64,000 nucleotides of DNA from Candidatus Altimarinota bacterium (GCA_018608565.1 JABAZT010000028.1:1014-65013); one strand, 5' to 3'; positions 15,911 to 21,741 are shown, counted from the first letter of the stretch. Made by a program: numbers and translations. Notes: generated by a model not told the origin, from the letters alone.

Positions 15911-17806
15911 TTAGGTCACAGTCCCTTCTGAATCCTTTTTGACCCAATGGGATTTTCCTTTTTTTGCTAAGGCTAATTCTGCAAGCTTCAACTGTCCAGG
16001 ACTAAAGTTTTCCTGGGCTTTTGATTGTGTAATCTTAATAGCTGCCGTAGTTCCCTTGTCTTTAAGCATATCCATACCACTCTCAAATACTTGTGAAGCG
16101 GCTGCCCATTTGAGTGCGCCTTCCCCTGCGGCTCGGACTATGCTTTTTTGGACATAGGTTTCCCCTATATCGGTGGCTCCTTTCTTGGCTTTTTTCTGAC
16201 TAAATCCAACTAACATTTGAGCTGCCTCTTTTTCTGTTAATTCCACCACCTCCGTCTTCGCTCCCTGTTTTATAGTGAGCTGCACGGTTCCGTCTTCTAG
16301 TGCTTTTTTGACGATAGTGGTTCCCTGAGTGGCGGCTTTTCCTGCTGATTTTGCAGCGGTACTGATTGCTTTTAGACTTGCTTGCTTTGCCACTCGTCTC
16401 ATGAGAAAGGCTGCCGCCATCTTCCACCCCCATCTTCCAGCAATTTTGATCGCCGTTGCAACCGCGACGGATAGCCCTCCAGTGATAAATCCTCCTGCAA
16501 TCCCTATAACCATAGGAATGTCTAGTGCGAGACTCACTCCTAGATCTGAGGCCTTAATCCAAAGAGGATCTCCGTTATTTTTTTTGAGCCGACGGAGAGC
16601 TCCGGGTGTCCCAAGAACAAAATCCTCTACTCCTGAATTGGCGATATTATCTTTGAGTCCGTCAAAATTTTTCTCTTCAATAAGTCCCCAAACGGCTTTT
16701 CGTCCAAGCTCCACAAAAGCAAACCTACCAGTTCTCCGAAGCTCCAACCCCTTGGCATGACCTGAACGCACTTGCTCACGAAATTGTGCCTGATATTTTG
16801 GACCTAATTCTTTAATCTCTTTTAAATGTTTTTGTACTTCTTGATTGAGATTTGCTATTTGTTTGGTCCCATCGCCTCCATTTGCAAATGCAGCAGCTAC
16901 ATTAGTCAGTTTTTTCCCCTCCATGGCCGTGTTTATACCTCTGACGGCGGATTGTAGTTTGGCTGCGTGTGCAGGATTATCTCGTATGAGATCTTCATAG
17001 GCTTGCTTACTTCGCTCTGCAGTTTGCTCTGCCTTATCTACATTTTCTCTGACAAATTCCTCTGTGTTTTCATAATGTTCGTGCACTTCCTCCGAAATCT
17101 CTGCCGTCTCTATGTATATCGCCACAGAGTTATGAAGATTTGGGTACTCAGCTAATAGATACGATCTAATCGCCCAAGCTTTTCCATATTCAAATAATCC
17201 TTCTTCCCCCTCTAGTATCTCCTCAACGGTATTAATTCGATAGTTTCCACTATCTGTTGGCTCTTCTTGGTAGTATTTGAGCGCTATTTCCTCAATACGA
17301 CCATGTATCGCTGATAATTCTACCTCTGCTCCTGCACCTTCATATTTTGATCCAATAAATGGGATCTTACTCATGTTTTTCCCTAGATTCATAATCTCGC
17401 TATAGGCCCGATATGCCTCATCTTCCATCGCCAGAATTTCATCGACTCGTTCGACTGCTTTTGGATTCTTTCGTAGGATACGCTTCATCTCACGAGCGGC
17501 ACGAGTGATACTATATTTTGGATTTTCCTTGATATGAAGGATTTGTTGATTTAGCTGAGCCACTGTTTTATTTCGTTCGCTCGCTGTTTCAATATGTTTG
17601 TTGGATCTTGTGGTTTGATGTGCCAGCATGTCCCCCACTCTCACATCGTTGGCAAGTGCCTCAAATGCTTCAATAATCTCAGCCCGTACTTCTTCTTTTT
17701 CTTCTGGAGTTTCTGCTGTCAATGCCGCAAGCTCCCCCTGAGCATCACCCAGAACATCTGTTCCATGAGTCAGTAGATTTTCGGCGGACTGAGTATTGAG
17801 TACCAT
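15911..17806 (-). CDS. Coiled-coil protein with hydrophobic hairpin; translocator/alpha-pore-former-like
   Basis: 631 aa, helical N-terminal region, then LALDIPMVIGIAGGFITGGLSVAVATAI and a basic amphipathic segment; function is inference. Confidence 0.6.
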   Translation of the reverse strand: MVLNTQSAENLLTHGTDVLGDAQGELAALTAETPEEKEEVRAEIIEAFEALANDVRVGDMLAHQTTRSNKHIETASERNKTVAQLNQQILHIKENPKYSITRAAREMKRILRKNPKAVERVDEILAMEDEAYRAYSEIMNLGKNMSKIPFIGSKYEGAGAEVELSAIHGRIEEIALKYYQEEPTDSGNYRINTVEEILEGEEGLFEYGKAWAIRSYLLAEYPNLHNSVAIYIETAEISEEVHEHYENTEEFVRENVDKAEQTAERSKQAYEDLIRDNPAHAAKLQSAVRGINTAMEGKKLTNVAAAFANGGDGTKQIANLNQEVQKHLKEIKELGPKYQAQFREQVRSGHAKGLELRRTGRFAFVELGRKAVWGLIEEKNFDGLKDNIANSGVEDFVLGTPGALRRLKKNNGDPLWIKASDLGVSLALDIPMVIGIAGGFITGGLSVAVATAIKIAGRWGWKMAAAFLMRRVAKQASLKAISTAAKSAGKAATQGTTIVKKALEDGTVQLTIKQGAKTEVVELTEKEAAQMLVGFSQKKAKKGATDIGETYVQKSIVRAAGEGALKWAAASQVFESGMDMLKDKGTTAAIKITQSKAQENFSPGQLKLAELALAKKGKSHWVKKDSEGTVT

Positions 17807-17816
17807 TTTGTTTTAT

Positions 17817-18014
17817 TTATTCAATATTGTTTAACTCTTCATCAAATTGCTTTTCGAAGACTTCGAATTCTCGTCTTTCGTGATGAGTAATTTTTTTGTT
17901 CAATCTTTTTACTTCTTCTTCCGTCTTAATTCGACCACCAAACATACCCCGCCTTCCGCTCCCTCGACGAGAGCTGGACCAAAATCCCGAACGGCGATTT
18001 CTTGATCGTGGCAT
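17817..18014 (-). CDS. Small protein, Arg/Gly/Ser-rich N-terminus and acidic helical C-terminus
   Basis: 65 aa; packed between the 1174-aa and 631-aa genes (2-nt and 10-nt gaps). Confidence 0.7.
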   Translation of the reverse strand: MPRSRNRRSGFWSSSRRGSGRRGMFGGRIKTEEEVKRLNKKITHHERREFEVFEKQFDEELNNIE

Positions 18015-18016
18015 AA

Positions 18017-21000: not shown

Positions 21001-21541
21001 CAATTGTATTATAAATTTTTTCTGTGGTTTTCCCACTTTTGAGTTGCGCCATAAGATAATCATCTATTTTCCCAAATTTTGGATGTTTTTCACTAATCCA
21101 TTTTGTATAATCATCCCCAAAATCAGCCTTAAGCTTATCAGCTAGTGTGAGTAACTCTGTTTTTTGCCTCTCTGAAAGTTCTGGAGCTTCTGGTGCTATT
21201 GTTTCTGCTGGCATGAGCTTATCAGCCCAATATTCTGCTTCTTCTCTGGTAAATTGGGCGGAAAGCATATATTTTTTGAGTAATTTCTTGTCTACATCCC
21301 CTTCAGCTACTAGTGACTGAATACTTTTTTCTATGGAATCCGTCATTCCTCGAACTGCATCTGGACTTGAATATATTTGAAGCTCATCAACACTTAACCT
21401 ATTTGTTTCGCCTGCCAACACTTCGTCAGAAAGAGAATCCAAATATTTTGATATTTCACCTCCAACTTCACGATCAAGAGTCTCTCGGTCGGAAATCAAA
21501 GCTGTTACTTCATCCTGATGATTTTCTGGAATTTCACTCAT
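18017..21541 (-). CDS. Large acidic hypothetical protein with Pro/Thr linker and C-terminal tandem domain duplication
   Basis: 1174-aa ORF, no signal peptide, no recognised family. Confidence 0.85.
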   Translation of the reverse strand: MSEIPENHQDEVTALISDRETLDREVGGEISKYLDSLSDEVLAGETNRLSVDELQIYSSPDAVRGMTDSIEKSIQSLVAEGDVDKKLLKKYMLSAQFTREEAEYWADKLMPAETIAPEAPELSERQKTELLTLADKLKADFGDDYTKWISEKHPKFGKIDDYLMAQLKSGKTTEKIYNTIASELGLDTTTVDGDPAVVENEGEESYGLNQKQSERLSQFEESYKNESDEIKKMDWIRLIAQDDSDIPTTDIVDSLGGIKYKGNLLGPSEALYSKIGGKDIIKDWVEALKVDSTITNGEQVISKLSEVFNQKLAVVAREYGEVIPAPGAQEPERRAFTERLNTAVDRDIADMKRELGRLLTMYKATPTTENIGAIKETVQGNIESGLLDPEDVVRIFNIADIPVNTQADILGGHMPAPQVPESKEQESGGSIDLGQVSGFSFTRSEIYESTDLIELAAGRLGTALVTEYEAWLDENRAKDQKTKNEAKQNKTKTGPNVIVLDDFLGGIMGGEAALPFPPQLSALLNASQVKVLQNLDTSDLKTKASDMIENAALEYFDKNSENLETQMMGNTRLEVKDEYKSYTKKQLNDEIESHGGMDSPSSEVAALKQALLYRRAMEDGIPKWAYSFRGGEYAEDFSQYLIDTKAAVPTYSDDPALDPASPGFDPNRVDVTEIWDDWFDGVKRKEELQKGDGAEFERAIHALLEFLEGLGISLGDEAGTDKSAKDLFLEGNGLSESEEQKKVREDSAAEKKEKNDRIVRAKEIAEKGDWAGFVLNEVDYEKTVVPVPGTGPVQAPTPVPGTTPGVTPPPAFTEPAPVSPEAAETAQKALQTKRQTFLTSNFGTIEAMNEFQSQILGQEKVRTNIDPTTSLETITTLLKETNKISSQEKDGKTVMIFTVGEGATAKSYEIEGKITDQTVEALKDEMKLDVEAQKREVEEALLLEISGNLSEFSDKFEGDLNSKVIKENGLSNDDGTLNPVFEKLLKIEDSFWKGGGLSEPDIKGLGHMISTKKITDVVVEKTDDTKEFVGVNLMKGAISNPVTTLEALKTKMSNVSRFLAEEELKFNNKVEASITKLDTDGWIRKDEIGVDTLKDAKLLTAEGDLVKGFKDLTSVSNKSSFVFNQPSLNKLGEAIIAEKFTIVRWEDKKIVATIKGKTEQQSLTPEDFMKNINT

Positions 21542-21705
21542 GATATTTTTTTATGCTTACTAAGTAAGGTTTGTAGTCGTGCAAACTTCATCAATAAAGA
21601 TTTTTGTGAATCTCTTTTTTGTTTTTGAGCTTCTTTGAGACGAACCTGCAAACGTGCAAATTTCATCAAATCGTCTTTTTGTTTTTGAATTTTAGCTTCA
21701 GACAT
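21538..21705 (-). CDS. 55-aa basic protein with duplicated QKQK...LMKFARLQ motif (below ORF-track cutoff)
   Basis: MSEAKIQKQKDDLMKFARLQVRLKEAQKQKRDSQKSLLMKFARLQTLLSKHKKIS*; ATGA overlap with the 1174-aa gene; consensus-like promoter 6 nt upstream. Confidence 0.75.
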   Translation of the reverse strand: MSEAKIQKQKDDLMKFARLQVRLKEAQKQKRDSQKSLLMKFARLQTLLSKHKKIS

Positions 21706-21711
21706 CACGTG

Positions 21712-21741
21712 ATTGTATCATATTTTTGATAGTTTTACAAT
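21712..21741. promoter_or_regulatory. Overlapping bidirectional sigma70-type promoter
   Basis: Minus strand: TTGTAA-17-TACAAT-6-ATG(21705). Plus strand: TTGTAT-17-TACAAT toward ligA. Confidence 0.6.

Follow-up and report, generated by a model that had tools for sequence, protein, structure and literature searches.

A relocated member of a fast-evolving Peribacteria protein family, with a core resembling the PT-TG pre-toxin module, in a genome-specific four-gene cluster

Background

Little is understood of PT-TG (PF14449), a pre-toxin module of polymorphic toxins, which are trafficked by type VI (T6SS) and type VII (T7SS) secretion systems, by contact-dependent inhibition (CDI) systems and by unknown routes (PMC13483458). 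In the sections of that paper that describe the module, its Gly, Asp and Arg positions are more conserved than the TG motif itself, structure predictions for it have low confidence, Lap-like genes, small and alpha-helical, are frequent just upstream of PT-TG genes, and 'singletons' lacking known trafficking domains span many phyla. A role as a linker or cleavage site is proposed there, and unknown cellular functions are allowed for. An RHS/YD polymorphic-toxin-like gene has been reported in a Saccharibacterium (PMC6031116). The subject of the present report is a cluster of four open reading frames (ORFs), all on the minus strand, in a 64,000-nucleotide (nt) stretch of DNA from a genome labelled Candidatus Altimarinota bacterium (GCA_018608565.1, JABAZT010000028.1:1014-65013; hereafter the window). 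We concentrate on the last of the four, which encodes a protein of 631 amino acids (aa) and belongs to a protein family, here called family X, whose conserved core resembles PT-TG.

How episymbiotic bacteria of the candidate phyla radiation (CPR) breach or tap their hosts is, to our knowledge, not known. No paper was found on family X or on PT-TG-type proteins in Peregrinibacteria, the supplementary taxon tables of PMC13483458 lying outside that search. An initial interpretation of the window, made from the DNA alone and referred to below as the sequence-only reading, had proposed an orphan operon that ends in a translocator-like or pore-former-like protein and serves interaction with a host.

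Results and discussion

Family X and its range

As a single query, the 631-aa protein (15911-17806, minus strand) finds only itself among 5.8 billion clustered proteins, and a scan of metagenome contigs with it returned no relative. A six-frame search of the tblastn type gave weak matches in 13 of the 24 other genera of the same taxonomic family, whereas the 16 further families that were sampled gave none. Profiles proved far more sensitive: from 1.84 billion proteins, one made from eight members retrieved 65 representatives at E<=1e-3, and one made from 53 members matched 27 of the 30 other genomes of the taxonomic family with E-values of 1e-71 to 1e-135. The three genomes that lack a match are 100, 95 and 89% complete. 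Mostly there is one copy per genome, as in the genome studied here; one genome has two separate copies, and in two further genomes the pair of matches represents the halves of a single gene.

Members of family X are 450-660 aa long and comprise a variable helical N-terminal region that includes a well-modelled coiled-coil domain, a conserved core with the consensus P-x-x-G-[ST]...R...D-x-G-x-N...D...G...(F)TGG...AAR, a basic stretch rich in Lys, Ala and Gly and a short conserved tail. Identity between genera is only 13-25%, compared with 58-60% for LigA and 77% for DnaK in the same genomes, from which it follows that the family evolves fast. By these searches, family X is confined to one family of 'Candidatus Peribacteria', a CPR lineage. 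That label, carried by the related loci, places the organism in the CPR, as the sequence-only reading had guessed. Beyond the taxonomic family, the X profile yields weak matches in 11 of 220 genomes (E 2.5e-7 to 1e-3), which fall on the Gly/Ala-rich and Lys/Ala-rich parts of unrelated proteins of 1137-1432 aa. Save for one that coincides with PT-TG, these may be compositional. Considering membership and change of place jointly, the 631-aa protein is very probably a divergent, enlarged and relocated member of family X.

Architecture of the 631-aa protein

An AlphaFold2 (AF2) model computed from the 53-sequence alignment is all-helical, with a mean predicted local distance difference test (pLDDT) score of 62.4 and a 53-residue helix at 224-276. 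Confidence is good for residues ~120-350 and falls below 50 for residues 427-514, which hold the hydrophobic and basic parts. The confident portion corresponds to an all-helical coiled-coil domain at residues ~105-350 (16757-17494, minus strand, like every feature of the cluster), with block pLDDT values mostly of 75-93, and a model of residues 105-425 by themselves reaches 74.4. The PT-TG-like core, delimited by family conservation and PT-TG similarity, follows at residues ~392-460 (16427-16633) and keeps G399, R406, D421, G423, D429, G435 and G444. Its second half is a Gly/Ala-rich hydrophobic segment with an 'FITGG' turn (residues 422-455, 16442-16543), inside which lies IGIAGGFITGGLSVAVATAI, residues 434-453, the one hydrophobic stretch noted for this protein in the sequence-only reading. 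Across all four proteins, no other 19-residue Kyte-Doolittle (KD19) window exceeds 1.6. The family maximum of KD19 ranges from 1.35 to 2.2, and 12 of the 53 members never reach 1.6.

Downstream of the core lies a basic Lys/Ala/Gly-rich segment (residues 456-500, 16307-16441; family composition A 18%, K 16%, G 14%), the net charge over residues 451-500 being +10. It had been described as Lys/Ala-rich and amphipathic. The composition holds, but the amphipathicity is just modest, the best 18-residue hydrophobic moment being 0.52; the family mean is 0.445 versus 0.376 for shuffled sequences, and in 34 of 45 members the moment is higher than the mean of that member's own shuffles. The tail (residues 501-631, 15911-16306) includes the family's terminal 'SPxQ' motif at 602-605 and two insertions that only this genome has, one forming a beta-hairpin (508-523) and the other about 50 residues long (549-599). 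The beta-hairpin insertion was also considered as a copy from the repeats of the 1174-aa protein encoded upstream, an origin rejected because the local alignment scored 32, where shuffled sequences averaged 32.9. At the N-terminus of the four proteins no hydrophobic segment was apparent, in keeping with the claimed lack of a Sec signal, although no dedicated signal-peptide predictor was run.

Similarity of the conserved core to PT-TG

The conserved core of family X is probably a divergent PT-TG domain, of which the hydrophobic 'hairpin' would form the second half. When 26 X modules are compared with 21 PT-TG regions that Pfam detects in the same taxonomic class, hhalign gives a probability of 70.5% (E 3.9e-5, 48 columns). 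The X profile aligns at 62.5% (E 7.3e-5) with a 320-aa protein of the Peribacteria, on the residues of its PT-TG region; this protein scores 24.7 bits with PF14449 (cut-off 23.5) and has a Lys/Ala/Gly-rich tail like that of X. The X profile also matches a 1432-aa protein exactly where PF14449 scores 24.2 bits. In the opposite direction, a hidden Markov model (HMM) of the class PT-TG regions, run against 27 X proteins and 1644 decoy ORFs, places X proteins at ranks 1-3 and at five of the top 10 ranks, with a best E-value of 1.8e-5 and colinearity over HMM positions 15-112. Leads of a softer kind come from the ESM Atlas, where the best score for the 631-aa protein is 0.86 and a neighbour cluster, scoring 0.83, is 84% PT-TG.

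Several results pull away from this assignment. The Pfam model itself matches none of the 26 X modules at E<=10 (its cut-off being 23.5 bits) and has no match at E<=1 at the X loci of 43 genomes. An hhalign comparison with a 413-aa PT-TG protein that carries a GNAT domain reached only 0.3%. The ranking statistic of the class HMM is overstated because the X proteins are kin, and the 631-aa protein, which has Phe396 where the family has a near-invariant Pro, falls outside its top 40. Part of the similarity may be compositional, since a Gly/Ala-rich part followed by a Lys/Ala-rich part is common to both. The family as a whole keeps G399, R406 and D421/D429, candidates for the Gly, Arg and Asp positions that are conserved in PT-TG.

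Like PT-TG singletons, X has a P-x-V-G-[ST] start, a conserved Arg, a G-x-x-G-D motif, a Gly-rich hydrophobic stretch followed by basic residues, a module modelled at low confidence and a helical N-terminal part without a recognised trafficking domain; in this genome there are small helical ORFs upstream as well. Unlike PT-TG, X lacks the nominal TG between the halves of the module, its 'TGG' coming later, and escapes the Pfam model. It departs from polymorphic PT-TG toxins in having a conserved C-terminus, no immunity gene and the standing of a near-universal, syntenic core gene. LXG toxins with Lap partners (T7SSb) offer a second comparison, as their parts come in the order seen here: one or more small alpha-helical genes upstream, then a helical N-terminal domain, next a module of PT-TG type and last a C-terminal part. 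Among the 53 X members, a single one has an LXG match (E 0.0019). However, no LXG, WXG100, YukC or EssB match occurs in this genome, and the small upstream ORFs are peculiar to it; in one other genome, an unrelated 110-aa ORF holds the LXG/Lap-like upstream position.

PT-TG is common in the class: of 301 genomes, 26 have a PF14449 match, which in 22 exceeds the cut-off. The matches (L051-L079) mostly lie inside proteins of 625-1974 aa, and several carry 3-9 in-frame TGA codons, which are expected for class members that recode TGA. The GNAT-bearing protein mentioned above comes from Peribacteria (L048 3666-4907, minus strand); it scores 27.5 bits with PF14449 and has its acetyltransferase domain at the C-terminus. 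A Peribacteria fragment at a contig end (L050 3361-3843, minus strand) has an RHS-core-like end next to a PT-TG match.

Relocation of the gene

Elsewhere, X occupies a recurrent place. It adjoins a convergent ion-channel gene in 17 of 28 loci, with dnaK next in 15 of those, while in the remaining two the locus ends or differs at that point. Usually it lies downstream of rsuA and yebC, and sometimes of a Na/Ca exchanger gene. In three genera it stands directly upstream of a P-type cation ATPase gene, with gaps of 49 nt and 11 nt and an overlap of 1 nt, respectively. Contexts seen only singly include ferredoxin with a 110-aa ORF, thyA with a 1000-aa ORF, dnaE and FliG, among others. In the present genome, the rsuA-yebC-exchanger-channel-dnaK block is on another contig (C35) with 73 nt in place of X, and the orthologue of the P-type ATPase gene has an unrelated 283-aa gene upstream.

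The 55-, 1174- and 65-aa proteins encoded ahead of the 631-aa protein resemble no neighbour of any X homologue. Large proteins do adjoin X paralogues elsewhere (1000, 1011 and 1067 aa), but none of them is related to the 1174-aa protein; nor is the 1000-aa neighbour related to the 1011-aa one, the sole pair compared. The 1011-aa neighbour is a TraG/VirD4-like coupling protein. Since the 1174-aa protein has no matches and the upstream proteins are unlike any neighbour of X, the four-gene operon is, as far as these comparisons reach, specific to this genome, and X has been relocated behind three orphan genes. The sequence-only reading had named beforehand a lack of conserved gene order as a finding that would refute it, and the order is indeed not conserved in related genomes. 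In one relative (L023 6722-9195), X lies beside a 2Fe-2S ferredoxin gene as it does here, but in divergent orientation, and an unrelated 110-aa helical ORF lies directly upstream of it.

Proposed function and the principal alternative

The best explanation as a whole, which we hold tentatively and at slightly less than an even chance, is that the 631-aa protein is a relocated X member of PT-TG-singleton-like build and of the membrane-engaging effector type. The protein would leave the cytoplasm or reach the cell surface by a route other than a type III secretion system (T3SS) or T7SS, neither of which was found, and would then engage a membrane through its marginally hydrophobic Gly/Ala-rich segment and basic tail. 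Its build would be that of a 'PT-TG singleton' effector rather than of a T3SS translocator, and its gene would have left the ancestral site to become the last in a packed cluster, behind three genes found nowhere else. Taken separately, the function proposed, that of an effector which is exported or delivered to the surface and uses its Gly/Ala-rich segment and cationic tail to engage a membrane, is one that we infer with slightly more doubt. Since the other known carriers of PT-TG are exported toxins and effectors, it is plausible that X acts as an effector or in interaction with a host. The proposal of a host-interaction effector thus gains plausibility from the probable PT-TG core, yet it is unproven.

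A good deal can be set against an effector role, and much of it speaks at the same time for the main, strong rival, a cell-autonomous membrane protein, which we regard as somewhat unlikely. According to this alternative, a re-entrant hairpin formed by the Gly/Ala-rich segment would anchor X in the membrane of the cell that makes it, with its N-terminal domain and basic tail in the cytoplasm, and X would act as a lineage-specific scaffold or cation-transport accessory, the likeness to PT-TG being compositional or reflecting an old non-toxin use of the module. The near-universal and mostly single-copy occurrence of X described above suits such a role, as do its stable housekeeping neighbourhood (in 17 of 28 loci, by the genes for the Na/Ca exchanger, the ion channel and DnaK) and its tight, operon-like coupling to the P-type cation ATPase in three genera. 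The C-terminus is not polymorphic but conserved, and there is no immunity-like gene behind X; what follows is the convergent ion-channel gene, the P-type ATPase gene, dnaE or ferredoxin. Basic residues flank the hydrophobic segment on both sides, which fits a hairpin anchor facing the cytoplasm. The failure of the Pfam PT-TG model to detect X points the same way, and PMC13483458, in the part that treats singletons, allows for some 'involved in unknown cellular functions'.

Further points against an effector role concern export. No signal peptide was seen on X, as judged by N-terminal hydrophobicity only, and no recognisable dedicated secretion system was found in a search that covered T3SS, T7SS markers and VirB4 and left out T6SS and CDI. 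Specifically, LXG, WXG100 and YukC gave no match in the genome, in which a single FtsK-type gene (787 aa) was found, and VirB4 (PF03135) gave none. The genome does have five ATPases of the type II secretion system E (T2SS-E)/type IV pilus type. Four tblastn matches to a TraG/VirD4-like coupling protein were also noted (contigs C28, C19, C9 and C38), two of them cut by contig ends.

The cell-autonomous alternative has difficulties of its own. The hydrophobic segment is marginal for a membrane anchor, with 12 of 53 members below the KD19 value of 1.6 and a near-invariant Asp inside it. Divergence is very fast for a housekeeping partner (13-25% identity versus 58-60% for LigA). In this genome, X is no longer near any transporter gene. 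Finally, the profile-profile similarity to PT-TG (62-70%) would have to be explained.

A more ambitious form of the effector proposal is rather improbable. Here X would be a conserved effector with which Peribacteria attack or tap a host, of PT-TG type and exported without T3SS, T6SS or T7SS, its module and cationic tail inserting into the host membrane, and it would have been recruited in this genome together with the acidic 1174-aa partner and small helical adaptors.

What makes X worth attention is the combination of near-universal occurrence in one lineage, fast evolution and a core like the pre-toxin module of delivered toxins. Because it occurs in genomes without a detected T3SS or T7SS and has this pre-toxin-like core, X is a concrete, cloneable candidate for a component of the interaction between CPR bacteria and their hosts. 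The finding also points to the existence of PT-TG-like modules that the Pfam model misses. If the cell-autonomous alternative is true, X would be a lineage-specific membrane component tied to cation transport, and thus of more local interest. The link is, however, one of remote homology, and there is no explanation for the partners in the operon.

Translocator, pore-former and tape-measure interpretations

The sequence-only reading had likened the 631-aa protein to T3SS major translocators of the SipB/IpaB type and to ClyA-family alpha pore-formers, with the 1174-aa protein as a large partner and the 55- and 65-aa proteins as chaperones or adaptors. This is very unlikely. The layout does fit, consisting as it does of a coiled coil, one Gly-rich hydrophobic stretch and a basic segment, and the resemblance to IpaB/SipB and SseC/YopB extends to a coiled-coil N-terminal part, a Gly/Ala-rich stretch with F-[ST]-G-G-[AS] and the lack of a Sec signal. 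The family consensus '...s.ft.Ga...' aligns to residues 313-338 of IpaB (taken from the annotated Shigella plasmid pCP301), which hold 'FSGGAS', so that the FTGGAS turn of the sequence-only reading was roughly right, and F[ST]GG[AST] occurs in 11 of 53 family members as against 5 of 1216 ORFs in the genome studied. SseC is weakly matched by one of the 26 modules (E 0.036, 14.1 bits against a cut-off of 30.2). In the VIA-align comparison, IpaB 74-224 appears at Z 6.5 with the domain model.

However, FHIPEP (FlhA/SctV, PF00771) is found in none of the 43 genomes of the taxonomic family, this one included, in a search whose control was positive in four of 14 known genomes, and this argues that no type III machine is present. 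The hhalign probability of the X profile against IpaB is 5.6%, over 26 columns of the hydrophobic stretch. On both counts the T3SS translocator interpretation fails, and the F-[ST]-G-G-A-S likeness is, at the level of profile comparison, a motif resemblance and not homology. The IpaB fold match covers 104 residues at a root-mean-square deviation of 8.0 A and does not stand apart from Bud6, CT398 and other unrelated coiled coils, which score Z 6.0-6.5. Pfam translocator and HlyE families are likewise silent, none matching the 631-aa protein at E<=1 and none being among the 25 families listed for the 53 members at E<=10. Unlike the translocators, X has one hydrophobic stretch rather than two separated ones, and it has neither a tetratricopeptide repeat (TPR) chaperone gene nor a T3SS. 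The 65-aa ORF is too short for a TPR chaperone, belongs to no family and is perhaps not a gene, and the 1174-, 65- and 55-aa partners are missing from all other X loci examined.

With the ClyA/Hbl/Smh/Xax toxins, X shares a long helical bundle and a hydrophobic head element. Foldseek matches of the full model to SmhB, XaxB and AhlB (E 0.32, 1.0 and 1.1, respectively) have TM-scores of at most 0.18, no match of this type recurs with the domain model, and such fold matches, at noise level only, together with the lack of an HlyE Pfam match, give the ClyA-type pore-former no support. A beta-hairpin at residues 179-191 is hydrophilic and so is not a beta-tongue. Structure prediction followed by Foldseek, the check originally proposed, yielded for the 631-aa protein no match at E<=1e-3 in PDB, with either the full or the domain model, or in BFVD. 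VIA-align returned generic helical hairpins under that tool's helical noise level (Z at most 7.9 with the full model and 6.5 with the domain), and a profile search of PDB sequences found generic helical proteins only (E>=0.011). A complete FliG gene (N, M and C domains) adjoins an X homologue in one Peribacteria genome (L021 2076-3131, minus strand) despite the count of 0/43 for FlhA/SctV.

A phage tape-measure-like protein or prophage remnant is hardly credible: long helices with a Gly-rich hydrophobic stretch are typical of tape-measure proteins, and tape-measure and minor-tail proteins crowd the top BFVD matches (E 0.05-0.35, TM-scores of at most 0.13), but none of these reaches E<=1e-3, none of the four proteins has a PHROG match below E 0.01, the neighbouring genes are housekeeping (ferredoxin, LigA, SecDF, FemAB, peptidases), and X is near-universal and syntenic in a bacterial lineage, with native-like codon usage.

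Organization of the cluster

The four minus-strand ORFs encode, in order of transcription, proteins of 55/56, 1174, 65 and 631 aa (15911-21708), and their sizes and spacing are all as first claimed. The first runs from an ATG at 21705 (21538-21705, 55 aa) or from a GTG (21538-21708, 56 aa), and its stop overlaps the start of the 1174-aa ORF (18017-21541) as ATGA. The junction with the 65-aa ORF (17817-18014) is a 2-nt gap, TAG-TT-ATG, and a further 10 nt precede the ATG of the 631-aa ORF. Ahead of the cluster, TTGTAA-17-TACAAT with an upstream TG (an extended -10) forms a promoter-like site at 21712-21740, the function of which we only infer. The operon had been said to have its own promoter; such sites are not enriched in the region, 13 being found where 14.1 are expected from shuffled sequence. 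The -10-like element ends 4-7 nt ahead of the first start codon. All four starts lack a Shine-Dalgarno-like sequence. Together these observations suggest a leaderless first gene, with the other three translated by coupled re-initiation.

Searches with Pfam, NCBIfam, PHROGs and PADLOC gave nothing significant for any of the four proteins. Codon usage in frame is native-like for the 631-aa (0.67) and 1174-aa (0.69) ORFs, against 0.49-0.56 out of frame and 0.66-0.77 for the other genes of the window.

The 1174-aa protein is acidic (isoelectric point, pI, 4.6), lacks Cys and hydrophobic segments and has a Pro-rich linker near residues 787-825. It has no match in 42 other genomes of the same taxonomic family, finds only itself among 5.8 billion proteins, whether used whole or as residues 840-1174 against shorter proteins, and has no relative in metagenome contigs and no usable match in the ESM Atlas. 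By codon usage and these searches, the gene is real and its product a true orphan. The term 'orphan operon' therefore suits the 1174-aa protein but not the 631-aa protein, which belongs to family X.

The 55-aa ORF, which has no homologue and no family, encodes a basic (pI 10.7), helical protein in which LMKFARLQ occurs twice. The two 8-codon copies differ at five nt, and because all five differences are synonymous we argue that the ORF is translated, so that the basic repeat protein is probably real. The 65-aa ORF, a putative gene, would encode an Arg/Gly/Ser-rich N-terminus followed by a charged helix. It shows no frame-specific codon signal (0.576 in frame versus 0.571 and 0.576) and has no homologue and no Pfam, NCBIfam or PHROG family. 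Given this lack of frame signal and relatives, it may not be a gene. The small chaperone that it had been taken to encode is accordingly left without a family and without a coding signal. A complex prediction for the 65-aa ORF and the 631-aa protein, scoring 0.01 against a mark of 0.32, speaks neither for nor against binding.

Genomic surroundings

The genome (1.66 Mb in 43 contigs) is 98.85% complete. The cluster is flanked by a convergent 2Fe-2S ferredoxin gene, 8 nt away, and on the other side by a divergent ligA; further out the window holds secD/F, purL/Q/M, FemAB, Mur ligases, peptidases, pyruvate formate-lyase and CysRS. The window is ordinary chromosome, and PHROGs and PADLOC, applied to the four proteins, showed no phage or defence markers. 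Four marine-metagenome DNA runs hold the stretch as short, mostly identical contigs at low depth, with no usable variation or bridging seen in them, and no RNA runs holding it are listed.

Two other genes of the window, both on the plus strand, have unusual domain contents. In the SecD homologue (710 aa, 23938-26070), residues 256-379 form a parvulin domain (PpiC-type rotamase) that precedes the P1 head and the C-terminal SecD/F domain; it is unusual for a foldase to be fused in this way to the Sec accessory subunit. In a 789-aa protein (42402-44771), the only recognisable part is a sigma-70 region 4 domain close to the N-terminus, at residues 109-160.

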